Part shown: in pieces, positions 10,193-38,315 of the stretch
How the letters are laid out: the number at the start of each line of letters is the position of its first letter
How positions within the stretch are numbered: position 1 is the first letter of the stretch
Position numbers and translations under genes: made by a program
Notes under the pieces: model-generated
What the model was told of the DNA's origin: nothing
Database searches by the model: none
What the model saw: the letters and a program-made list of their open reading frames with translations, nothing else
NCBI GenBank assembly: GCA_903835065.1
Contig: CAILLO010000006.1
Span: forward strand, 4,839-68,838
Reading direction: 5' to 3'
DNA length: 64,000 nucleotides
Source: an uncultured Eubacteriales bacterium
GTDB taxonomy: Bacteria; Bacillota; Clostridia; Saccharofermentanales; UBA5734

Positions 10193-10888
10193 TCACTCGT
10201 CGACCAGGCGATAGCCCACCCCGACTTCGGTCCGGATGTACCGGGGGTGGGTGGGTTCGGCCTCGATCTTGTGGCGGATGCCCGTCATGAAGACGCGCAG
10301 CGAATTCGCGTCCTTGTCCAGGACGACACCCCACAGTTCCTTCGCGAGCAGCCGGTGCGTCAGGACCTTTCCGGCGTTGCGGGCCATCAGCGCCAGGATC
10401 TTGTACTCGTTCGGCGTCAGATGCACTTCGGCGCCGTCGAGGACGACCCGGCGCCGGTCGAACTCGATCCGGAGCCTCCCGACTTCGTACACGGGGTCGT
10501 CCCTTCGCCCGGCGACCTGCGCCGAGTGGCGCAGCGCGACGCGGATGCGGGCCAGGAGCTCGACCATGCTGAAGGGCTTGCTGAGATAGTCGTCCGCTCC
10601 ACTGTCCAGCGTCCGGGCCATCTCGCTCTCCTGGTCGCGCGCCGTGACGACGATCACGGGGACCTGCGAGAACGAGCGGATCTTCCGCAGCACCTCCGTC
10701 CCGTCGATGTCCGGCAGTCCGAGGTCCAGCAGTACCACGTCCGGGGCCTCCTGCGTCAGCAGGCGGAGCCCCTGGCGGCCGTCCGCGGCCTCGAGGCAGA
10801 CGTAGTCGCGCGCTTTCAGCGTCACGCGGATGAAGTTCGCGATCGTCCGGTCGTCCTCGATCAGGAGCACGGTGGGCCGGTCAGCCAT
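10193..10888 (-). CDS. kdpE: KdpE response regulator (OmpR family)
   Basis: Receiver domain (LLIEDD, D in LLDLGLPD) plus a winged-helix C-terminus. Overlaps the kdpD 3' end. Confidence 0.9.
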   Translation of the reverse strand: MADRPTVLLIEDDRTIANFIRVTLKARDYVCLEAADGRQGLRLLTQEAPDVVLLDLGLPDIDGTEVLRKIRSFSQVPVIVVTARDQESEMARTLDSGADDYLSKPFSMVELLARIRVALRHSAQVAGRRDDPVYEVGRLRIEFDRRRVVLDGAEVHLTPNEYKILALMARNAGKVLTHRLLAKELWGVVLDKDANSLRVFMTGIRHKIEAEPTHPRYIRTEVGVGYRLVDE

Positions 10889-13622
10889 TCCGCACCTCCG
10901 CGGCCGCCCGCATCGGGATCGTGAAGCGGAACACCGCGCCGCGGGGCTGGGCGTTGAAGGCCGAAATCGTACCGCCGTGCGCCGTGACGATCGACCGGGA
11001 GATCGACAGGCCCAGGCCGATCCCCCGGCGGGCGTCGGCGCGGCTCTCCCCCTTGGTGAAGAACCGGTCGAACAGGTGCGGGATGTCCTTCTCGTCGATG
11101 CCCGGCCCGTCGTCCCGGACTTCGAACGTCGCCGCCGGTCCGTCGCACCAGGCGTTGACCTGGATGGTCGTCCCTTCGGGCGTGTACCGCACCGCGTTGT
11201 CGATCAGGTTGACGAGGACCTGTTCGATCAGCCGGCCGTCCATGGGCACCATGTCGGACGGCTGGCGGAGATGCGTCTCGATCCGGTGGCCGTGGAGATG
11301 CTTCTCGATGTGTTCGAGGGACTCGGCCACGATCTCCTCGACGACCTCGTCCTTGACGTGGAGGGCCAGCCGGCCCTCGTCGATCCTCGTGACGCTGAGC
11401 AGGTTCTCGACAATCTGGATGAGCCAGTCCGCGTCGTCGCAGATGGACTGCAGCAGTTCCTTCCGCGTGGCGGGGTCGAGCGTGTCGTCGTTCTCGAGCG
11501 CCGTGGCGGCGGCTCCGGAGATGCCCGTCAGCGGCGTGCGGAGGTCGTGTGAGACGGCGCGGAGCAGGTTGGACCTCAGCTCTTCGCGCTCGATGTTCTT
11601 CTGGGCCAGGTGACCGGCTTCGTCGAGCTGTTCGCGCTCCACGGCCAGGGCGATCTGCCCGGTCACGGTCATCAGCTTCCGCCGCTGCTCGGCGGGCAGC
11701 GGGCGGCCGTTGGCGCAGAGCACGCCGATCACGGCCAGGGCCTTCAATTCGCCGATGACGGGCAGATAGAACCCGGCCGACCCGGGCAGCGTATCCGTGC
11801 CGCACCCGGCCTGCCGGGCGTTCTCGAGCACCCAGTGGGCGACCGACCGCTCGTTCGGTGTCAGGAGGGCTCCGGCGCCGTCGTTGCCGACCTCCTTCGC
11901 TACGGCGGGTTCCGGTAGCTCGGATTCTCCGTTGCCGTCCGGAATATAGCAGACGACCGGACGGTCGAGAAGTTTCACCAGGTGGCTGGAGATCGCCTCC
12001 GCGAGAGAATCCATGTCCTGGGCGCACAAGAGGACCCGGCTGGTCTGGAGCAGCAGGTCGTCCGTCTTCTCGCGCTCCGCCACGATGCGCGCCTGGCGGC
12101 GGATCCGCGTCGTCAGGGTCGTCGTCAGGAGGGCGGCGCCGAGCATGACCGCGAACGTCAGCGGATAGTCGCGGCCATAGGCCAGCAGCGTGTATTTCGG
12201 CTCCGTGAAGAAATAATTGAAGGTCAGGACGGACAGGACGGAACTGAGGATTCCCGGTACATGGCCGTTCGTCAGGGAGGAGACGACCAGCACGCCCATT
12301 AGGTAGAGGACGACGAGACTGGATTCCGAATACGCGCTGCGCTGCAGGAAGAACCCGACCAGGGTGACGACGGCGATCACGAGCAGCATGACGAGCAGGT
12401 CCCGCAGCGAGACGTGGAAGTTCAGCGCCGGCATCCGGAACCTGCGGCGCTTGTGCTGGGAGCGGTCCTCCGGGATGACGTAGACGTCGATGTAGGGCGT
12501 CGCGGCGATGATCCGGTCGGCAATGTCGATGTTGAAGAGGCGTCGCTGGAACGACAGATTCCGGTGGTACTTCCCGATGACGATTTTCGTGACGTTGCGG
12601 ACCCGGGAGTACTGCACGACCTGCTCCGCGATGTCGTCGCCCTGCACGGTCACGACCCGTGCGCCGAGCCGCTCGGCCAGGTCCATGTTCTCCTTGAGGC
12701 GCTGCCGCTCGTCCTCCTGCATCCGCTTGCGCTGGGGCGTCTCCACGTACAGCGCGATCCAGCGGGCGTGGAAGGCCTCGGCGATCCGGCTGGCCGAGCG
12801 GATCACGTGGCCGTTCTGCTGGGAGGAGCTCAGGCACACGAGCAGGGTCTCGCCCAGGGCCGCCAAGCCCTCGTCGGCTCCCCGCAGCTTCTGGGGCGTG
12901 CTGAGATTGAAGATCCGGTCCGCGCTGCGCCGCATCGCGATTTCGCGCAGCGCGACGAGGTTGTGCTCGGTGAAGAAGTTCTGCGTCGCGAGGGAGGCCT
13001 GGCGAGGGACGTAGACCTTGCCTTCGCGCAGGCGCTGGATCAGGTCGGTCGGTTCGATGTCGATGAGCTCGACCTGATCGGCGCCATCGAACACGGCGTC
13101 GGGAATCGTCTCGCGGACCAGCACCTGGGTGATGGACGCCACGATGTCGTTGAGGCTCTCGATGTGCTGGACGTTGACCGTGGTGTAGACGTCGATTCCG
13201 GAAGCCAGCAGCTCCTCCACGTCCTGCCAGCGCTTCCGGTGCCGCATCCCTTCGGCGTTCGAATGCGCCAGCTCGTCGACGAGGAGGATACCGGGACGGC
13301 GCGCCAGGGCGGCATCCAGGTCGAATTCCTTCAGCAGGAGCTCGCCCTGGCTGACTTCCCGATAAGGAAGACGCTCGATGCCGATGGCCAGGTTCATGGT
13401 CTCCGGACGGGCATGGGGTTCCAGGTATCCGATGACGACGTCGGTGCCGGCCTTCTTCTGCGAAAGGGCGGAGTCGAGCATGGAGTAGGTCTTGCCGACT
13501 CCGGCGGCGTAGCCGAAGAAGATCTTGAGCTTGCCCCGCGCCTGGACCTGCTCCTCCCGCTTCACTCGCTCGAGCAGTTCTTCCGGGTCGGGACGGGAAT
13601 CCCCTGGCCGTCGGTCCATCAT
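10881..13622 (-). CDS. kdpD: KdpD sensor histidine kinase
   Basis: 913 aa. N-terminal KdpD domain with P-loop (GYAAGVGKT), then USP, TM segments, HisKA (SHDLRTPL) and HATPase regions. Confidence 0.95.
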   Translation of the reverse strand: MMDRRPGDSRPDPEELLERVKREEQVQARGKLKIFFGYAAGVGKTYSMLDSALSQKKAGTDVVIGYLEPHARPETMNLAIGIERLPYREVSQGELLLKEFDLDAALARRPGILLVDELAHSNAEGMRHRKRWQDVEELLASGIDVYTTVNVQHIESLNDIVASITQVLVRETIPDAVFDGADQVELIDIEPTDLIQRLREGKVYVPRQASLATQNFFTEHNLVALREIAMRRSADRIFNLSTPQKLRGADEGLAALGETLLVCLSSSQQNGHVIRSASRIAEAFHARWIALYVETPQRKRMQEDERQRLKENMDLAERLGARVVTVQGDDIAEQVVQYSRVRNVTKIVIGKYHRNLSFQRRLFNIDIADRIIAATPYIDVYVIPEDRSQHKRRRFRMPALNFHVSLRDLLVMLLVIAVVTLVGFFLQRSAYSESSLVVLYLMGVLVVSSLTNGHVPGILSSVLSVLTFNYFFTEPKYTLLAYGRDYPLTFAVMLGAALLTTTLTTRIRRQARIVAEREKTDDLLLQTSRVLLCAQDMDSLAEAISSHLVKLLDRPVVCYIPDGNGESELPEPAVAKEVGNDGAGALLTPNERSVAHWVLENARQAGCGTDTLPGSAGFYLPVIGELKALAVIGVLCANGRPLPAEQRRKLMTVTGQIALAVEREQLDEAGHLAQKNIEREELRSNLLRAVSHDLRTPLTGISGAAATALENDDTLDPATRKELLQSICDDADWLIQIVENLLSVTRIDEGRLALHVKDEVVEEIVAESLEHIEKHLHGHRIETHLRQPSDMVPMDGRLIEQVLVNLIDNAVRYTPEGTTIQVNAWCDGPAATFEVRDDGPGIDEKDIPHLFDRFFTKGESRADARRGIGLGLSISRSIVTAHGGTISAFNAQPRGAVFRFTIPMRAAAEVRNG

Positions 13623-13632
13623 GTCGGTGCCC

Positions 13633-14226
13633 TCACTGCCTGGCCAACGCGTCGAGCGCGATGTTCAGCTCCAGGACGTTCACCCGCTCCTCGCCGAAGA
13701 TTCCGAGGAAACGGCCCTGGGTGTGTTCGGCGACCAGTTTCGCCAGGGAATCCGCCGCGAGTCCCCTCGCCCTGGCGACGCGACCCGCCTGATAGAGTGC
13801 GCCCGCGACCGAGATATCGGGGTCCATGCCGCTCGCCGAGGCCGTCACCAGATCCACGGGGACTGCCGCTTCATTGCCGGGGTCCGCGTCGCGAAGGTAG
13901 GCGATGCGGGCCTGCACGGCCGCCGCCTCGTCCCCGCTCGTCACGGACAGGTTCGAACCGGCGCTGGCGAGGACGTTGTAGGGATAGTCCGCCGTCGCGG
14001 AGGGTCTGCCCCAGAAATAGCCCGGGTCGGTGAAGTTCTGGCCGATCAGCGAGGATCCGACGGCGGTTCCATTCTTCTGGATGATACTTCCGTTGGCCTG
14101 GCGCGGGAAGAAGAGCTGGGCGACGCCGGTCACCGCGAGCGTGTACAGGACGCCGCAGAGGAGCGTCAGGACCAGAAGCATCAGCAGGGATCGGACAAGA
14201 GTCTTCCGGATGTTCATTTCGTTCAC
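13633..14226 (-). CDS. kdpC: K+-transporting ATPase subunit C
   Basis: About 197 aa with a single N-terminal TM segment. Family pattern matches KdpC, and the gene sits between kdpB and kdpD. Confidence 0.9.
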   Translation of the reverse strand: MNEMNIRKTLVRSLLMLLVLTLLCGVLYTLAVTGVAQLFFPRQANGSIIQKNGTAVGSSLIGQNFTDPGYFWGRPSATADYPYNVLASAGSNLSVTSGDEAAAVQARIAYLRDADPGNEAAVPVDLVTASASGMDPDISVAGALYQAGRVARARGLAADSLAKLVAEHTQGRFLGIFGEERVNVLELNIALDALARQ

Positions 14227-14227
14227 C

Positions 14228-16309
14228 TCAAGCCAGTCCGAAGGCCACGAGCAGCAGGTCGATGGCCTTGATCGCGAGGAACGGGGCGATGAGCCCCCCG
14301 ACGCCGTATAGCAGCAGGTTGCGCTTCAGCAGGACGGCCGCCGGCACCTCCCGGTACTTGACGCCCTTCAGGGCGAGCGGGATCAAGGCCACGATGATGA
14401 GCGCGTTGTAGATCACGGCGGACAGGATGGCACTCTGCGGGCTGTGCAGCCCCATGACGTTCAGGGCGCCGAGGGCGGGGTAGATGCCGAGGAACAGCGG
14501 CGGGATGATGGCGAAGTACTTCGACACGTCGTTCGCGATGGAGAACGTCGTGAGCGCGCCGCGGGTCATCAGCAGCTGCTTGCCGATGCGCACGATATCG
14601 ATGAGCTTGGTCGGGTTGCTGTCGAGGTCCACCATGTTGCCGGCTTCCTTGGCGGCCTGCGTCCCCGTGTTCATCGCCACGGCGACGTCGGCCTGCGCCA
14701 GGGCCGGCGCGTCGTTCGTCCCGTCGCCCGTCATGGCGACGAGGTGGCCCTTCCGCTGGTATTCGCGGATCATCGCGAGCTTGCTCTCCGGCGTCGCCTC
14801 GGCGAGGAAGTCGTCCACGCCGGATTCCGCGGCGATGGCGGCCGCCGTCATCGGGTTGTCCCCCGTGATCATGATGGTCTTGATGCCCATCTTCCGGAGG
14901 TCCTCGAAGCGTTCCTTCACGCCGTGCTTGACGATGTCCTTCAGGTGGATGACCCCCAGGATCTCCGCGTCGCGGGCGACCACCAGCGGGGTGCCGCCCG
15001 AGCGCGCGATGGATTCGACGATGCGCTGGCACTGGGCGTCCATCGCCCCGCCCTGTTCCTCGACGAAGCGTCGGACGGCTTCGGAAGCCCCCTTGCGGAT
15101 CCTGCGGCCGTCGATGTCGACTCCGCTCATCCGCGTCTGGGCCGTGAAGGGCACGAAGACGATGCTGCTCTGGCCGAGCGTGCGGGCGCGGATGTTGAAT
15201 TCCTCCTTGGCCAGCACGACGATGCTGCGGCCTTCCGGGGTCTCGTCGGCGAGCGAGGAGAGTTGCGCGACATCGGCCAGCTCCCGCTCCTCGACGCCGT
15301 CCAGCGGCAGGAAGGCCGTCGCCTGCCGGTTGCCGAGCGTGATCGTGCCGGTCTTGTCGAGCAGCAGCACGTCCACGTCGCCGGCGGCCTCGATCGCCCG
15401 GCCGCTCATCGCGAGCACGTTGGCCTGGTTCAGGCGGCTCATGCCGGCGATGCCGATGGAAGAGAGCAACGCTCCGATGGTGGTCGGCGCCAGGCAGACC
15501 AGCAGCGCGACGAGGGACGTGACCGAGACCCAGGCGCCGCGGCCCAGCTGGGCGACGGCGAAGACGCTGTAGGGGAGGAGCGTGGCGCAGACGACGAGGA
15601 AGATGATCGTGAGGGCGACGAGCAGGATCTGGAGGGCGATCTCGTTGGGCGTCTTCTGCCGCGACGCGCCTTCGACCATGGCGATCATCCGGTCGAGGAA
15701 GCTGTCTCCGGGCATGGAGGAGACCCGGACGACGAGACGGTCGGACAGCACCGTCGTGCCCCCCGTGACCGCGCTCCGGTCTCCGCCGGCCTCCCGGATG
15801 ACGGGTGCGGATTCGCCGGTGATGGCGCTCTCGTCGACCGAGGCGGCGCCCACGACGACGTCGCCGTCGGCCGGGACCTGTTCGCCGGCCAGGACGAGCA
15901 CGAAGTCCCCCAAGATGAGCCTTTCGGAATCCACGTCGACCGACCGGGCTTCAAAATCAGGACGGTCAAGCTTGTGCGCCAGGATGTTCCGCTTCGCGCG
16001 GCGCAGCGAGTCCGCCTGCGCCTTGCCCCGCCCCTCGGCGATGGCCTCCGCGAAATCGGCGAACAGCACCGTGAACCACAGCAGCAGGCTGATGGCGAGG
16101 ATGAAGTCCGGGTCGGTGTCCGAGGCGCCCTTGAGCGCCGAGAAATAGAAGACCAGCGTCAGGATCGCGGCGATGTACACCACGAACATGACCGGGTTCT
16201 TCCACTGCGTGGAGGGGGCCAGCTTCCGGAAGGAATCCCCCACGGCGCGCAGCAGCATCCTGCCCGTAAGAGCACCGTTCGACTTCATTCTTCGATTCAT
16301 CGCATCCAC
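14228..16309 (-). CDS. kdpB: K+-transporting P-type ATPase subunit B
   Basis: DKTGTIT phosphorylation motif, TGDN and [10 protein letters not shown] motifs. 693 aa. Confidence 0.95.
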
Positions 16310-16318
16310 CCCCGTCGC

Positions 16319-17998
16319 CTATCGGATTCTGGAGAGTTGCTCGGCGACGGGCCCCAACGCCAGCGCAGGGAAGAAGCTCAAGGCGCCCAGGATCAGCACC
16401 ACGAAAATGAGCAGACCCACGAACAGGAGATTGTTGGTCGAAAGGGTCCCTGCGCTGACAGGCACGAGCTTCTTGCCTGCGAGGGATCCGGCGATGCCCA
16501 GCGTCGCCGCGATCGGCACGAAGCGGCCGACGAGCATCGAGACGGCCAGGGCGACATCGTAGAAGACCGAATTCGCGTTCAGGCCCGCGAAGGCGCTGCC
16601 GTTGTTGTTGGCGGCTGAGGAGAACGCGTAGAGGATTTCGGAGAAGCCATGCGCCCCGGTGTTGGCCAGCGCCGCGGAAGTTCCGGGGTAGACGGCGGCC
16701 AGGGCCGTGCCCAGCAGGACTGTCAGCGTCGGTCCCAGGATGACCAGGACTGCCATTCGCATCTCCCAGGGTTCGATCTTCTTGCCCAGGTATTCCGGCG
16801 TCCGCCCCACCATCAGGCCCGCGATGAACACGGCCATCAGCGCGAAGGCGATCATTCCATAGAGCCCACTGCCGACGCCGCCGCCGACCACCTCGCCGAG
16901 CTGCATCAGGACGAGGAGCACGAGCCCGCCGAGCGGCGTGAAGGAATCGTGCATGGCGTTGACGGACCCGTTTGAAGCTGCAGTAGTCGTGACAGCCCAA
17001 AGCGAGGAGTCGACGATACCAAACCGCGTTTCCTTGCCTTCCATGTTGCCGGCCGACTGCTCGAAGTACAGCGCGAACGCGAGACAGGCGACGAAGATGA
17101 CGAGCATCGCGGCGAGCAGGGCGAGGCCCTGCCGCTTCTGGCGCACGGCGTACCCGAAGGCGAAGCAGCAGGCGAAGGGGAGGAGGAGGATGGACAGCAT
17201 CTCCAGCAGATTGGAGAAGGGCGTCGGATTCTCGAACGGGTGGGCCGAGTTGACGCCGAAGAAGCCACCGCCGTTCGTTCCCAGTTGCTTGATGGCGATC
17301 TGGCTGGCCGCGGGACCCATCGGCAGGGTCTGCGAAGCGATGGTGGTCCCGTTCGAGACGAAGGGCTGCAGGACGGAGACCTGCTGGTAGTCGCCGAAGT
17401 TCTGGACGACGCCTTGGGATACGAGCAGGATCGCCAGCACGAAGGAGAGCGGAAGAAGGATGTGGACGATGCCGCGGACGAGGTCCTGCCAGAAATTCCC
17501 GATGGTCTTCATCGATGCGCGCGTGAACCCGCGGATCAGGGCGAACAGCACCGCGAGGCCGACGGCCGCGGACACGAAGTTCTGGACGGCCAGCCCCAGC
17601 ATCTGGGTCAGGTAGCTCATCGTGGTCTCGCCCGAATAGGACTGCCAGTTGGTGTTCGTCACGAAGCTGACGGCCGTGTTCAGGGCCAGGTGCCAGGAGA
17701 GGCCGGACATCCCCTGGGGATTCAGCGGCAGCAGGTTCTGGAGCAGCTGCAGCGCGAACACGGCCAGGAAGCACACCGCGCTGAAGATGCCGACGGCCGC
17801 GAGGTATTGCTTCCAGTCCATCTCCTCTTCCGGGTCGATCCTCGCGAGACGGTGGACCAGGCGTTCGACGGGGACGAAGATCCCGGAGGTCCAGGTCTTC
17901 CGACCCTCCATGACCTTCCAGAGGTAGCGGCCCAGCGGCCAGGCCAGCAGCACCACGAGCACGACGAACAGGACGCTTTGAAGAATCAGATTGGTCAT
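16319..17998 (-). CDS. kdpA: K+-transporting ATPase subunit A
   Basis: Polytopic membrane protein of about 560 aa starting MTNLILQ. Typical KdpA selectivity-filter-like GTNGGGF segments. Confidence 0.9.
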
Positions 17999-18008
17999 CT
18001 CACACACC

Positions 18009-18086
18009 TCAATGGAACAGCATGTAGGCGAGATAGACCAGGAGTCCCAGGGCGCAGACGCCCGATAACGCAATCAACCAAGCCAT
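18009..18086 (-). CDS. kdpF: K+-transporting ATPase subunit F (25-aa single-TM peptide [25 protein letters not shown])
   Basis: Small ORF immediately upstream of kdpA with a GAGAGGA RBS. Hydrophobic, with KdpF-like LV/YLxYAL composition. Coordinates are hand-counted and accurate to about 1 nt. Confidence 0.6.
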
Positions 18087-34011: not shown

Positions 34012-34182
34012 GTTCCGAAGCGCTCGGTCGCGTCGCGCAGCGCGCGCAGGTTCTCCGGCGGCACCCGCGGCGACGCGGAGCAGGCCGTGCTCAGGATGTA
34101 GCCGCGCGGGCGGACCCGGGACGCGAAGAGAAGCCCCCGCACGGCGTGCGGGGACCCCTCCGATGTCCTGGACTCGAGCGCG

Positions 34183-36225
34183 TCAGTCGTCCTGCAGCGC
34201 GTCGTATCCCTCTTCCCCGGTGCGGACCCGGATGACGTTCTCCACGTCGTAGACGAAGAGCTTGCCATCGCCGATGTGGCCCGTGTAGAGCGCCTTCTTG
34301 GCGGTCTCGATGACCTTGCGGACCGGGACCTTCGAGACGACGATCGAGACCTGCACCTTGGGCAGCAGGTTCATCTCCTTCTCGACGCCGCGGTAGTATT
34401 CCGTCTTTCCCTTCTGGATGCCGCAGCCGAGGACCTGCGTCACGGTCATGCCTGCGATGCCGATGTCGTTCATGGCCTCCTTCAGGAGCTCGAACTTGCT
34501 CAGCTTGGTGATGATGTCGATCTTGGTGAACTTCACGTCGGAGGCCATGAGGGTGGACGGGGAGGTCACGAGCTCGACGGGGACGGCCCGGTCGATGTGC
34601 ACTTCCGGATTCTTCGGGACCGGCGGGGCGAGGGGGCCGCCGTGGGCCAGCCGGTGGTTGAAGCGGGCGAGCTGCGGAATCGGGGCGTTGTCGGCGGAGT
34701 CGTAGTCGAGTTCGGAGGCGGCGCGGACGTTGTCCGGGTAGGCGAGCACGCCCATCTCCGGGACGTCCAGGCCTTCCAGTTCGTCCTCCGGCGCGGAGCG
34801 CAGACCCCAGACGCGGTCGAGGACTCGGAAGAACGCGTAGGAGACGCCGAAGCCGAAGACCAGCAGCACGCCGACGGCGATGAGCTGGGCGACGAACTGG
34901 GACGCGTCGCCGTAGAACAGGCCGCGCACGCCGCCGGCCACGCCGTTGTACCCGTCGCCGTAGGATCCGTCCGCGAATAGGCCGAGCGACAGTACGCCCC
35001 AGAATCCGTTCACGCCGTGGACCGAGATGGCGCCGACCGGGTCGTCGAGCTTGAATCGGTTCTCGACGAACGGGACGGCCAGGCAGACCAGCACGCCGGC
35101 GACGGCGCCGATCGCGAAGGCCGACAGGCCGTTGACGAAGGCGCAGGGGGCGGTGATGGCGACGAGGCCCGCCAGCGCGCCGTTGGCGGTCATGGACGGG
35201 TCGGGCTTGCCGAACCTGATCCACATGAAGGCCATGGCGACGAGCCCGCCGATGGCGCCCGCGATCATGGTGTTGGTGGCGACGACCGACAGGCGGAGGT
35301 CGGTGGCGTTGAGCGTGGAGCCCGCGTTGAAGGCGAACCAGCAGAAGAACAGGATGATCGTGCCGATGATGGCCATCGGGATGTCGTGGCCCGGGAAGGC
35401 GCGCGCCGTGCCGTCCTTCTTGAACTTGCCGATGCGGGGGCCGATGACGATCGCGCCGGCCAGCGCCAGCATCCCGCCCATCGAGTGGACCACCGCGGAG
35501 CCGGCGAAGTCGACGACGCCGTGGCCCAGTCCGAAGTTCTTGCCGAGGGTCGACAGCCAGCCGCCGCCCCAGACCCAGTTGGCGAACACGGGATACAGGA
35601 AGATGGAGATGAAGAACGAGGTGATGACGACGGCCGAGTACTTGACGCGTTCGGCCATGGCGCCGGTGGGGATCGTGACGGTAGTGTCCATGAAGACCAT
35701 CTGGAAGAAGAACAGGGCGTAGATGCCGGCGTCGTAGGTGCCGACCAGGCCGAAGCCCTTGAGTCCGAGGATGCCGCCGAATCCCGGGACGGACAGCATC
35801 GCGTTGAGGGCGGAGCCGCCCGAGCCGAGGCCGGCCGCACCGCCGGATCCGCCCATCTGCAGGGCGAAGCCGACGAGGAAGTAGCCGATCGCGCCGACCA
35901 GGAAGACCATGAAGTTCATCGTGATGGTGTGGGCGGCGTTCTTGGAGCGGCAGAAGCCGGTCTCGACCATGGCGAAGCCGCACTGGAAGAAGAACACGAG
36001 GAAGGCGCAGATCATGACCCAGACGTAGTTGGCGCCGAGCATCGCCTTGTTGGCGGTCGTCGCGACGTCGGTGAGGGTCTCGGTGCCGGTCGTGGCGGAG
36101 TAGGAGGCGCCGGTCGGGTCGGCGGCGGAGGAATCGCCGATGAACCGGCTGGCGATGACGAGAATCGCGGCGAACGCGACGATGGCGACGAGGATGAGGA
36201 TCAGGGACTTCCTGGGAATCTTCAT
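34183..36225 (-). CDS. amt: Ammonium transporter (Amt) fused to a C-terminal P-II (GlnK/GlnB) domain
   Basis: 680 aa. The N-terminal roughly 470 aa is Amt/MEP/Rh (FLVFFFQCGFAMVETGF, multiple TMs). The C-terminal roughly 110 aa is P-II-like (KFTKIDIITKLSKFELLKEAMNDIGIAGMTVTQVLGCGIQKG...YRG...). Confidence 0.9.
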   Translation of the reverse strand: MKIPRKSLILILVAIVAFAAILVIASRFIGDSSAADPTGASYSATTGTETLTDVATTANKAMLGANYVWVMICAFLVFFFQCGFAMVETGFCRSKNAAHTITMNFMVFLVGAIGYFLVGFALQMGGSGGAAGLGSGGSALNAMLSVPGFGGILGLKGFGLVGTYDAGIYALFFFQMVFMDTTVTIPTGAMAERVKYSAVVITSFFISIFLYPVFANWVWGGGWLSTLGKNFGLGHGVVDFAGSAVVHSMGGMLALAGAIVIGPRIGKFKKDGTARAFPGHDIPMAIIGTIILFFCWFAFNAGSTLNATDLRLSVVATNTMIAGAIGGLVAMAFMWIRFGKPDPSMTANGALAGLVAITAPCAFVNGLSAFAIGAVAGVLVCLAVPFVENRFKLDDPVGAISVHGVNGFWGVLSLGLFADGSYGDGYNGVAGGVRGLFYGDASQFVAQLIAVGVLLVFGFGVSYAFFRVLDRVWGLRSAPEDELEGLDVPEMGVLAYPDNVRAASELDYDSADNAPIPQLARFNHRLAHGGPLAPPVPKNPEVHIDRAVPVELVTSPSTLMASDVKFTKIDIITKLSKFELLKEAMNDIGIAGMTVTQVLGCGIQKGKTEYYRGVEKEMNLLPKVQVSIVVSKVPVRKVIETAKKALYTGHIGDGKLFVYDVENVIRVRTGEEGYDALQDD

Positions 36226-36289
36226 TCGGATCTCCTTTCAGGCCGGGGGCATCCGGATGGGCTGCGGGACAGGGGGCGACGGTCGCGCT

Positions 36290-36592
36290 CTAGCGGCGCT
36301 GTCGGGACTTGTCCGACCGGAAGTTGTCCCAGGAGAACCGGGACGTATCCTTGTAAACTTCGGCCCGGAGCTTCCGGACGGAAAGCAGGTACCGGACGCC
36401 CAGGAACATCAGGACGACGCCGAACACGGCTCCGGGGACCTGGGATCCCATGACCGTGAACTGGAAATCCTCGAGCGTGCAATCGATGCCGAACGCGGCA
36501 CCGCCCACCAGGATCATGACGGCCAGGACGAACAGCAGGACGATGGGGCTGGACTTGGAAGGGTCGACTTTCATCTGCGCGGGTGTCTTCAT
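36290..36592 (-). CDS. Small two-TM membrane protein (hypothetical), first gene behind the amt leader
   Basis: 100 aa. Strong RBS GAGGAGAGGAGG. Two hydrophobic helices. It lies between the attenuator leader and amt-glnK. Confidence 0.45.
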   Translation of the reverse strand: MKTPAQMKVDPSKSSPIVLLFVLAVMILVGGAAFGIDCTLEDFQFTVMGSQVPGAVFGVVLMFLGVRYLLSVRKLRAEVYKDTSRFSWDNFRSDKSRQRR

Positions 36593-36599
36593 GTGTCTA

Positions 36600-36771
36600 C
36601 CTCCTCTCCTCGCTTTTCCGAAAATGCCGAAGGCGCCTGCCCGGACTGTCCGGACAAGCGCCTTCGCTCGTACAGAAAAGGCGCCTCTGACCGTCGGATC
36701 AGAAGCGCCTTCGCTGTTTGTGGGGGAGTATACGGGGTCGGCGGCGGGTTGTCAATCCCGGGTCCGGGATT
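36600..36771 (-). promoter_or_regulatory. Consensus sigma70 promoter (TTGACA-17-TATACT) with an upstream 8-2-8 palindrome AATCCCGGgtCCGGGATT, followed by a roughly 130-nt leader carrying two tandem terminator-like hairpins
   Basis: -35 at about 36750-55 and -10 at about 36727-32 on the minus strand. Hairpin 1 (about 36675-36714) is a 13-bp stem followed by UUUUC. Hairpin 2 (about 36618-36665) is an 11+5 bp stem followed by GGCAUUUUCGG. Both hairpins share GCGAAGGCGCUU...AGGCGCCUU arms. Confidence 0.6.
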
Positions 36772-36777
36772 CGGATC

Positions 36778-37716
36778 CTACAGCCTCCGGATCACCGTCG
36801 GGTCGATGTGCGCGAGGTCCGGAGAGGCGGTGCGGCCCATGCACGAAGCGAGCACCTCGGTCACCGAGACGATCTTCTCCGCCACACCTTCCGCTCCCCC
36901 TTCGGCCAGGGAGTCCATCAGGGAGCGCCCGAACGACACGGCGGTCGCCCCGAGCGCCAGCGCCTTGAACGCGTCGATGCCGGTCATCAGGCAGCCGTCC
37001 AGGAAGACGGGGATGCGGCCGGCGACGGCCTTCGCGATCTCCGGAAGGACGAGCAGCGGGGGCACGGCGTAGTCCTGGATGCCGTGGTGGTGCGAGAGGA
37101 CGATGCCGCGCACGCCGGCCTCCAGGCCCTTGAACGCATCCTGCAGGCTCAGGGTGCCCTTGAGGAGGAACGGCACGTCACCCGCCGCCGCGACGTAGCG
37201 TCGGATATCGGCGGCGGACTTGGCACCCATCGCGACGCCCTTGACCTCTCCGAGCTGGCCCCGCTGGTTGAACGAGTGGTCGACGTCCATGCCGATGCCC
37301 AGCACGCCGCAGGACTTCGCGTGGGCGATCCGCCGCATCGCGACGTCCTCGTCGGCGTAGGGCTTGAGCACGACGACCGTGCGGGCGCCCGTCGCGACGA
37401 TGCTCTCGAGCTCCGCTTCGTCGCCGAACCCGGCCCAGTACACCGCTCCGGCCAGCGCGGCGCCGCGCGCCAACTCGACCATGCCGTTCGGGCGGATCCA
37501 TTCGAGGTGCGACAGGGCGGCGGTCATGACCGGCGTCGCGAACGTCTCCCCGTACAGCGTCAGCGCGGTGGAGGGGACGACGGCGTCGAGGTAGCGCGGC
37601 TCGATCAGCAGCGAGTCGAGGTATTCGCGCGCGATCCGGTTCGAGTCGCCGGGGCGCGGCTGGGTCATCGGGAAAATCTCCGAGGGCTTTCTGGGCTTCT
37701 GGGTCGTCTCTTCCAT
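36778..37716 (-). CDS. FMN-dependent alpha-hydroxy acid dehydrogenase/oxidase family (LldD/glycolate oxidase-like)
   Basis: TIM-barrel FMN motifs (GIVLSHHHG, DGCLMTGIDAFKALALGA). About 312 aa from MEETTQK. The track ORF's upstream extension is non-coding. Confidence 0.75.
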   Translation of the reverse strand: MEETTQKPRKPSEIFPMTQPRPGDSNRIAREYLDSLLIEPRYLDAVVPSTALTLYGETFATPVMTAALSHLEWIRPNGMVELARGAALAGAVYWAGFGDEAELESIVATGARTVVVLKPYADEDVAMRRIAHAKSCGVLGIGMDVDHSFNQRGQLGEVKGVAMGAKSAADIRRYVAAAGDVPFLLKGTLSLQDAFKGLEAGVRGIVLSHHHGIQDYAVPPLLVLPEIAKAVAGRIPVFLDGCLMTGIDAFKALALGATAVSFGRSLMDSLAEGGAEGVAEKIVSVTEVLASCMGRTASPDLAHIDPTVIRRL

Positions 37717-37889
37717 GGACTTCCTTCCTCTTCCGGACTTCGCCGAAACCGCGGGCGGGCTGCCTCCCGCATTATACCGCGGGACGGCGGCGAGCGGGCG
37801 CCCGGAATCGGGACAGCGCGGCGAGCCCCTGCGCGGCGTGAGGGAACCACATGGGCTCCGCGTGCGTCTAAAGGCATATCGGGAGGGAG

Positions 37890-38315
37890 GTGGACCCCTT
37901 GGCCGGACGAATCGGACGCTCGATCCTGTCGGGACTGCTGATCGCGGTGACGATCGCCCTGTCGACCTACGCCGTCCTCGACCACCTCGTGGGCGCGGTG
38001 CAGGCGACGGACAGCGGCGTCCAGGGCACCGCATGGGTCGGACCGGTCTCGCCCGTCCAGAAGGCCGGCGACGCCAGCGAGCAGGTCTATGCGAACGCCT
38101 GGATCCTCGTGAAGGACGCGGCGGGGAGGACCGTCGCGACGGCCGTCTCCGACAAGGCCGGACTGTACCGCGTGGCCCTCTCCCCGGGAAACTACACGCT
38201 CAGCCCGCAGCCGCCCGTGGGGAGCGCCCTGCCGCGCGGCGCGGACGTGGTCGCGGAGGTCGTGAAGGGACGGTTCACCCGGCTCGACGTGCATTATGAT
38301 TCGGGAATCCGATAG
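37890..38315 (+). CDS. Small secreted protein with carboxypeptidase-regulatory-like beta-sandwich (hypothetical)
   Basis: N-terminal TM/signal segment. A ...GLYRVALSPGNYTL... pattern resembles CarboxypepD_reg/transthyretin-like domains. Confidence 0.4.
   Translation: MDPLAGRIGRSILSGLLIAVTIALSTYAVLDHLVGAVQATDSGVQGTAWVGPVSPVQKAGDASEQVYANAWILVKDAAGRTVATAVSDKAGLYRVALSPGNYTLSPQPPVGSALPRGADVVAEVVKGRFTRLDVHYDSGIR

Follow-up and report, generated by a model that had tools for sequence, protein, structure and literature searches.

We analyzed a 64,000-nucleotide (nt) stretch of contig CAILLO010000006.1 from an uncultured Eubacteriales bacterium (hereafter the window, meaning the whole stretch), in which a minus-strand operon encodes a conserved 100-amino acid (aa) protein with two transmembrane (TM) segments, followed by a 680-aa fusion of the ammonium channel Amt with its regulator P-II. 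The leader of this operon contains two terminator-like hairpins in tandem, and both begin with the same 12-nt sequence, AGC-GAAGGC-GCU, which can alternatively fold into a hexaloop mini-hairpin matching published ANTAR targets. We consider it likely that the leader consists of tandem protein-dependent attenuators of the ANTAR type, which would place the small open reading frame (ORF)/Amt-P-II operon under nitrogen control. The class of RNA (ANTAR-type, upstream of nitrogen genes) is known and the fusion is common in the clade; the unusual feature is the layout with one loop per terminator.

Hairpins and hexaloops of the amt leader

The operon runs on the minus strand in the order promoter, leader with two hairpins, 100-aa ORF, 680-aa ORF and terminator, with the following features:

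36727–36755, minus strand: σ70-type promoter TTGACA-17-TATACT, 11/12 consensus match
36672–36716, minus strand: terminator-like hairpin 1, −30.5 kcal/mol; match to covariance model (CM) R1 at 36674–36715, 26.6 bits
36615–36672, minus strand: terminator-like hairpin 2, stem 36666–36628, −36 kcal/mol; CM R1 match of 29.5 bits
36704–36715, minus strand: hexaloop mini-hairpin 1, AGC-GAAGGC-GCU, 5′ arm of terminator 1, 3-bp stem with covariation
36657–36668, minus strand: hexaloop mini-hairpin 2, AGC-GAAGGC-GCU, 5′ arm of terminator 2
36600–36609, minus strand: Shine-Dalgarno sequence of the small ORF, GGAGAGGAGG, read from the sequence; precedes the ATG at 36592
36290–36592, minus strand: conserved 100-aa two-TM protein, first gene of the operon; two hydrophobic segments, GC content at third codon positions 0.87
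34183–36225, minus strand: Amt-P-II fusion, 680 aa, both domains recognized by Pfam and NCBIfam
34127–34161, minus strand: conventional terminator hairpin downstream of the operon, CCCCGCAC-GCC-GUGCGGGG followed by CUUCUCUU; folded

The −35 (TTGACA, 36755–36750) and −10 (TATACT, 36732–36727) hexamers of the promoter form the sole site in the 64 kb, on either strand, that matches at least 11 of the 12 consensus positions. A site of this quality arose in just one of 200 windows simulated with a first-order Markov model, bearing out the original prediction that the promoter would be rare by chance. Transcription is predicted to start near 36720 (36721–36719), and the leader counted from there is ~128 nt long. 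An equivalent promoter ended 7–12 nt ahead of the first hexaloop hairpin at no fewer than 20 related loci, and the first hairpin of related leaders often started ~10 nt past a TTGACA-17-TATAAT promoter. The ribosome-binding site and the 100-aa two-TM ORF that had been described from the sequence were likewise found as predicted.

The full leader folded at −75.4 kcal/mol (z = −8.0), and none of 200 shuffled sequences was equally stable, so that the predicted hairpins survived the folding check. Both hairpins share the 5′ arm AGCGAAGGCGCUU, the tail of hairpin 1 reads UUUUCUGU (36679–36672), and a simple terminator scan called neither of the two. The stem itself is conserved as a structure: in an alignment of 86 related units (A1), it was paired in 86.5% of cells, compared to 69.5% in column shuffles and 41–56% with slid partners, and double changes were found in 266 cells versus 84 expected. 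G-U pairs were common in the stem, the gap between the arms ranged from 4 to >30 nt, canonical T-runs followed the hairpins in lower-GC relatives, and a T-run is part of the family consensus.

The 12-mer AGC-GAAGGC-GCU, which folds as a 3-bp stem and a six-base loop in both window copies, is at the same time the 5′ arm of both window terminators, making the mini-hairpin and terminator folds mutually exclusive. Across 116 CM matches the 12-mer had the consensus RRC-[R A N G R N]-GYY. Of the 116, 115 carried G at loop position 4 (G4), as did both window copies; the closing C-G pair was likewise found in 115, and 93 had A as the first loop base. Its ends remained self-complementary while changing in sequence (AGC…GCU, GGC…GCC, GAC…GUC, AAC…GUU, CAC…GUG). 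The outer pair of the mini-stem was A-U in 61 matches, G-C in 46, G-U in 6 and A-C in one (Fisher p 5e-24), and the middle pair covaried similarly (Fisher p 2e-21). On a second alignment (A2), 92.7% of the mini-stem cells were paired, compared to 22–46% with a slid partner. CM R1 encoded the terminator structure alone and left out the mini-stem pairing, which the terminator does not demand. The seed regular expression fixed C3, G7 and G10, and the invariance of these positions in A1 is therefore partly by construction; this bias was controlled for with unbiased k-mer and strand-asymmetry counts and with the 33 CM matches from outside the seed, which showed the covariation as well (p 5e-7 for the outer and 1e-4 for the middle pair). 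The core CRANGRNG occurred 106 times on the sense strand, in 60 of 65 leaders, compared to 30 occurrences of its reverse complement, which is the background level. Thus, the constraint on the motif acts on the sense strand of the RNA. The mini-hairpins, at −3.7 and −4.4 kcal/mol, are far weaker than the terminators they compete with (−30.5 and −36 kcal/mol), and the antiterminator fold would therefore need a protein.

Distribution of the module among Clostridia

Regions of 120–420 nt upstream of the small ORF were surveyed in 65 loci spanning 38–68% GC, and nearly all of them contained one to three terminator-like hairpins with the 5′ arm RGCAAAGGNGCY. When CM R1 was run with cmsearch over the window and 80 loci (641 kb), it returned 151 matches, or ~117 non-overlapping sites, essentially all in sense orientation and directly 5′ of nitrogen genes; in the 64-kb window the two leader hairpins were the only matches. 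Besides the small ORF with Amt-P-II, the genes downstream of the sites were, by Pfam, glutamine synthetase (GS) III, GS I and the asparagine synthase AsnB. Shorter Amt-P-II paralogues were also found behind the module, as was a stand-alone P-II gene, the first of a long operon in which amt-P-II is included.

The hairpins could have been generic terminators, an idea that we rejected: CM R1 found almost nothing else in the 641 kb, and it missed the 3′ terminator of the operon itself (34127–34161), which carries no hexaloop motif. They could also have ended transcription of the upstream gene, described from the sequence as LldD-like, which encodes a flavin mononucleotide (FMN)-dependent dehydrogenase and ends at 36778, just upstream of the amt operon on the same strand. 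Among the relatives this upstream gene varies (Nramp, sulfatase, GS III and others), while the order promoter, hairpin, small ORF and amt is retained, and the hairpins therefore belong to the amt operon. Both possibilities are ruled out because the CM R1 sites are sense-oriented and directly upstream of nitrogen genes. On this comparative evidence, the leader hairpins are a conserved attenuator of the amt operon and not a terminator of the dehydrogenase gene. The attenuation that the original prediction had proposed for this operon thus gained support from the relatives, where the order is kept and where GS, AsnB, P-II and other amt genes have the same module in front of them.

A metagenome scan with AGCGAAGGCGCTT-N(8–30)-GGCGCCTT returned 33 loci, mostly chance matches in coding DNA; it added the loci L092, L105/L119 and L112, which are leaders of AsnB, amt-P-II and GS III genes, and yielded no contig of the organism from which the window comes. 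In a 4.9-Mb Clostridia chromosome (L087, 2022–13502), amt-P-II lies without the small ORF in a long operon that also encodes P-II, an ABC transporter, an aldehyde dehydrogenase and aminotransferases, with a single hexaloop-terminator module before the stand-alone P-II gene; the operon looks like one for polyamine or γ-aminobutyric acid catabolism. In one sub-clade (L021, L024, L029, L047), an A/T palindrome, GCATATATTGRTATATATCGCA, is conserved ~16 nt 5′ of the second unit (GACAAWGGGGUC). Read as UAU-AUUGGU-AUA, it would form a hexaloop that has A1 and G4, but its pairing is lost in L019.

Likeness to ANTAR targets and alternative readings

By published definition, the ANTAR element is a mini-hairpin with a hexaloop, placed where the 5′ side of a terminator begins (Ramesh et al. 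2012, PMC3369931). In the seed alignment of that work (Fig. S1), the P2 hairpins read GGC-AAAGGA-GCC (eutP), AGC-AAAGGC-GCU (eutA), AGC-AAAGAA-GCU and AGC-GAUGAA-GCU. Our module units share their consensus with these P2 hairpins and several have the same sequence: among the published P2 elements of eutA (AGCAAAGGCGCU), eutP (GGCAAAGGAGCC) and Listeria monocytogenes eutA (AGCGAUGAAGCU), the first two, from Enterococcus faecalis, are identical to 12-mers of the relatives. The dual-hexaloop ANTAR RNAs as a group (EutV with eutP, eutG, eutS and eutA of Enterococcus and Listeria; NasR/nasF; AmiR/amiE) share with the module the short stem and hexaloop, G4, the usual A at positions 1 and 2 (position 1 is G in both window copies), the conserved closing C-G, the exclusivity with a terminator, the presence of several attenuators per operon and the association with nitrogen metabolism. 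An ANTAR-type antiterminator, one of the candidates put forward in the original prediction, therefore fits, since the 5′ arms are hexaloops that match published ANTAR targets. The class is not the uncharacterized one it had been taken for, because ANTAR-target RNAs before P-II, ammonium-transporter and GS genes, including Clostridium thermocellum Cthe_1499, were catalogued in 2012 (PMC3369931).

The following sequence of events is proposed. Transcription would start at the strong promoter a few bases ahead of hairpin 1. By default, each hairpin would fold as an intrinsic terminator, and most transcripts would stop short of the small ORF. The first 12 nt of each terminator (AGC-GAAGGC-GCU) may alternatively fold as the 3-bp stem and hexaloop, and an RNA-binding antiterminator, activated by a presumed nitrogen signal, would grip the hexaloop as it emerges from the polymerase, withholding the 5′ arm so that no terminator forms and transcription reads through. 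This putative regulator would most likely carry an ANTAR domain, belong to the NitR/EutV type of response regulators and have its gene elsewhere in the genome. Two modules in series would multiply the tightness of the off state, and the finished channel would presumably be gated by its own fused P-II domain through the T-loop, by analogy with AmtB-GlnK. Antitermination by a protein reading the hexaloop is, in our estimate, probable, and we hold with somewhat less confidence that this reader would be an ANTAR-domain protein.

Several observations weigh against the ANTAR interpretation. Canonical ANTAR targets contain two hexaloops, P1 and P2, which lie 5–12 nt apart in the eut RNAs (PMC3369931), and with EutV either the deletion of P1 or the lengthening of the linker by 14–20 nt abolishes antitermination (PMC3369931, PMC8934654). 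The window departs from this dual-hexaloop rule: its hexaloops are 47 nt apart from start to start, and the 35-nt linker between them holds the rest of terminator 1, so that, unlike the dual-hexaloop RNAs, each hexaloop sits in its own terminator, the first at the very 5′ end of the transcript. No ANTAR-like P1 was found within 40 nt of 115 of the 117 units, and a relaxed P1 pattern occurred in 20.5% of the units against a background of 20%. A single unit is carried by 29 of 58 related leaders. Both window loops start with G rather than A and can close as a 4-bp stem with a tetraloop; G at this position is found in 20% of the family, and the P2 hairpin of L. monocytogenes eutA in the published seed also has it (GAUGAA). 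The original prediction had given each hairpin a U-tract, and while both hairpins and the tail of hairpin 1 stood, the stem of hairpin 2 is followed by GCA and then by just UUUU (36624–36621), a tract that is short and displaced by 3 nt. The U-tracts are weak in this high-GC lineage, that of hairpin 2 above all. Finally, no ANTAR-domain gene was found in the window, either by Pfam on 20 ORFs or on all ORFs with a hidden Markov model (HMM) built from four solved ANTAR domains. The 3–10 kb flanks of ~120 related loci likewise lacked one (HMM, and seven Pfam-annotated neighbourhoods). Across the window and the loci, the HMM matched only a 15-residue chance similarity inside the P-II helix. Searches with ANTAR sequences did not find the regulator, nor did it appear in the loci from the metagenome scan.

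The leader is therefore set apart as an ANTAR variant, because it shares the defining hairpin and lacks the dual hairpins with a short linker. A convincing P1 within 40 nt was present in just two of the 117 units, as the canonical dual hexaloops AGCAAAGACGCU-gaa-GGCAAAGACGCC (L076, 5169–5195) and GACAAAGGAGUC-aaaca-AGCAAAGCCGCU (L057, 2519–2547) with linkers of 3 and 5 nt; thus, single and dual layouts coexist in one family. At no fewer than 20 loci, and likewise in L122 and the window, the first hexaloop starts 7–12 nt past the −10 hexamer, and no P1 is possible in such a transcript. The second units of related leaders lie 50–170 nt downstream of the first. The modules would be single-hexaloop antiterminators. 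The predicted ANTAR regulons of Clostridia (Cthe_1499; the clusters of GS and glutamate synthase (GOGAT) genes with the adjacent response-regulator (RR)-ANTAR gene Clo1313_2030; solventogenic glnA-nitR) share with the module the phylum, the gene classes (ammonium transporter, P-II, GS, asparagine synthase) and the proposed mechanism of a terminator with an antiterminator hairpin. They were found with a two-hairpin model of 45–60 nt, whereas single-hexaloop modules predominate here, and the GS/GOGAT clusters have the RR-ANTAR gene alongside, whereas the regulator gene adjoins no locus that we inspected. The papers covered report no experimental test of these regulons.

The solitary layout, found in 115 of 117 units and accompanied by single-unit leaders in half of the cases, conflicts with the requirement of EutV for P1 and a short linker. 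Together with the failure to find an ANTAR gene in the window or the searched flanks, it lends some weight to an attenuator of the same logic whose reader is not an ANTAR protein, for example an RNA-binding protein controlled by P-II/2-oxoglutarate or by glutamine that needs one hexaloop. We regard such a reader as unlikely, for the hairpin equals experimentally defined ANTAR targets base for base, and one hexaloop is the minimal binding unit, for which EutV has no lower affinity than for the dual motif, the two being equal (Walshe et al. 2022, PMC8934654), although these authors expected single sites only where the timing of the polymerase is irrelevant. Moreover, the genes of ANTAR regulators often lie apart from some of the genes they control (Ramesh et al. 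2012, PMC3369931), and our search for the regulator covered only small fractions of the genomes.

Hairpins that are not regulated at all, acting as stabilizing stem-loops at the 5′ end of the mRNA or as constitutive partial terminators or insulators with an inherited shared arm, are improbable. Stabilizing 5′ stem-loops are known in Firmicutes, the first hairpin starts only a few nt from where the transcript is predicted to begin, as is typical of them, and the U-tracts of the window are weak. This reading leaves unexplained the invariant G4 and closing C-G, the covarying 3-bp mini-stem, the asymmetry between 5′ and 3′ arms, the second units 50–170 nt downstream and the restriction of the module to nitrogen-assimilation genes across genomes of 38–68% GC.

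Control at the level of DNA, with the inverted repeats or a palindrome at the −35 hexamer serving as operators for a dimeric nitrogen repressor, is more improbable still. The palindrome was correctly described in the original prediction, which proposed it as an operator:

36754–36771, no strand assigned: perfect 8-2-8 palindrome AATCCCGGacCCGGGATT (AATCCCGG-2-CCGGGATT), overlapping the first two bases of the −35 hexamer

Its overlap with the −35 hexamer, and that of the first hairpin with the start-site region, would suit a repressor. We nevertheless rejected the palindrome as an operator, as the nearest relatives, L005, L122 and L006 (89%, 86% and 85% identical protein), all lack it and yet retain the promoter and the hairpins, and it is no rarer than chance, with 29 perfect inverted repeats with 8-nt arms and a short spacer in the window versus 22±7 expected. 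The hairpins are no better suited to be operators: the distance between their arms varies from 4 to >30 nt, their G-U pairs, strand asymmetry and U-tracts make sense in RNA only, and numerous units are located a long way from the promoter, downstream of it.

A riboswitch that binds a metabolite such as glutamine was another candidate of the original prediction, in keeping with a terminator-containing leader before a nitrogen gene, and resembles the glutamine riboswitches (glnA RNA, Downstream-peptide motifs) in being a cis-acting RNA before such genes; we give it next to no chance, since, unlike these, the leader has no Rfam match (Rfam 15, no match in the window at gathering thresholds and only chance microRNA-like hairpins in the leader at E up to 10) and no conserved structure of aptamer size, the conserved element being a 12-nt hairpin, and the ~5 nt ahead of the first terminator leave no space for an aptamer.

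The Amt-P-II fusion and its implications

The ammonium channel and P-II are joined in one polypeptide, as originally proposed: in the 680-aa ORF, Pfam recognized Ammonium_transp at residues 68–496 (E 5e-108; nt 34738–36024) and P-II at residues 567–671 (E 3e-23; nt 34213–34527; GlnK/NrgB-like), separated by a linker of ~70 aa. When the P-II T-loop was aligned to GlnK/PII chains, Arg47 was kept (YRG), Tyr51 was replaced by Lys, and the B-loop GDGK(I/L)F was conserved. The fusion, which had been presented as unusual, is widespread. The identical 680-aa protein is encoded, in an unchanged gene order, on four metagenome contigs, and >120 clusters at 77–89% identity hold both domains. GTDB species representatives gave 347 loci with the fusion, almost all in metagenome-assembled Clostridia genomes, including Saccharofermentanales, Oscillospiraceae, Christensenellaceae and the cultured Papillibacter cinnamivorans. 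C. thermocellum Clo1313_2260 has already been noted as an AmtB + P-II protein, in an organism with an RR-ANTAR gene in its GS-GOGAT cluster (PMC4676874); beyond this mention we found no study of Amt-P-II fusions in the literature. No solved chain in the PDB spans both domains; 8qj3_A and 8qpf_A, ammonium transporters of 644–661 aa, match through the Amt domain only, and their long C-terminal extensions are not P-II, so that structures exist for other Amt fusions but not for this one.

The fusion shares with AmtB-GlnK of E. coli (PDB 2NUU/2NS1) and NrgA-NrgB of B. subtilis (GlnK, 4R25) the combination of Amt with a GlnK/NrgB-like P-II and Arg47. In those systems the channel and P-II are separate, whereas here they form one polypeptide, as in Clo1313_2260, and the classical operons have no counterpart of the small two-TM protein that leads the operon here. 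This small ORF lies directly 5′ of amt-P-II in ~66 of the 80 fetched loci (tblastn, E 1e-14 to 1e-34), and a word-index search returned nine homologues; it matches no Pfam or NCBIfam family. Its C-terminus, described as a cytoplasmic tail, has the conserved motif FLG.RY..SV.KL..EVYK..S.FSW.NF. The small protein may serve the fused channel as a subunit or chaperone, and the small membrane protein together with the fused P-II suggests a three-part ammonium-channel unit.

A second class of Amt-P-II proteins, 585–589 aa long and lacking the N-terminal signal/TM extension (L067, 545–2314; L076, 5258–7015; L028, 573–2336; L105, 8801–10567), is often found beside the 680-aa type in the same genomes, with its own hexaloop-terminator leaders and no small ORF. 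In an 89%-identical relative (neighbourhood of P0003), a 906-aa PAS-GAF-HD signalling protein is encoded immediately downstream of amt-P-II and convergent to it. The FMN-dehydrogenase ORF upstream of the operon is listed with 418 aa (36778–38034, minus strand), its first ~105 residues being rich in Arg and Pro; this looks like read-through of high-GC sequence, and translation probably begins at the Met near residue 107 (MEETTQKPRK…). Elsewhere the window holds a kdp potassium-pump cluster (10193–18073, minus strand) with KdpC, an OmpR-type response regulator and large neighbouring ORFs, as well as genes for PPK2, a hemerythrin, an ArsR regulator and a BlaR1-type peptidase. None of these, the kdp cluster included, is related to nitrogen control.

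Taken together, one small RNA module appears to switch ammonium uptake and GS-dependent assimilation in many uncultured Clostridia of gut, rumen, digester and sediment, and the covariance model that finds it is a ready marker for the nitrogen regulons of these bacteria. With its single hexaloop for each terminator, which frequently lies at +1, and its common pairs of terminators in series, the family is a natural test of the two-hairpin ANTAR model. We raise only tentatively the idea that a single hexaloop at a terminator's 5′ base, even one located at +1, suffices for regulated antitermination in this large group of Clostridia. If true, it would contradict the model of a recruitment hairpin and strict spacing derived from EutV, and would point to an ANTAR subfamily with a different, faster or RNA polymerase-associated mode of binding, or to a non-ANTAR reader of the same loop, which might be linked to the P-II/2-oxoglutarate signal of the same operon that it controls.

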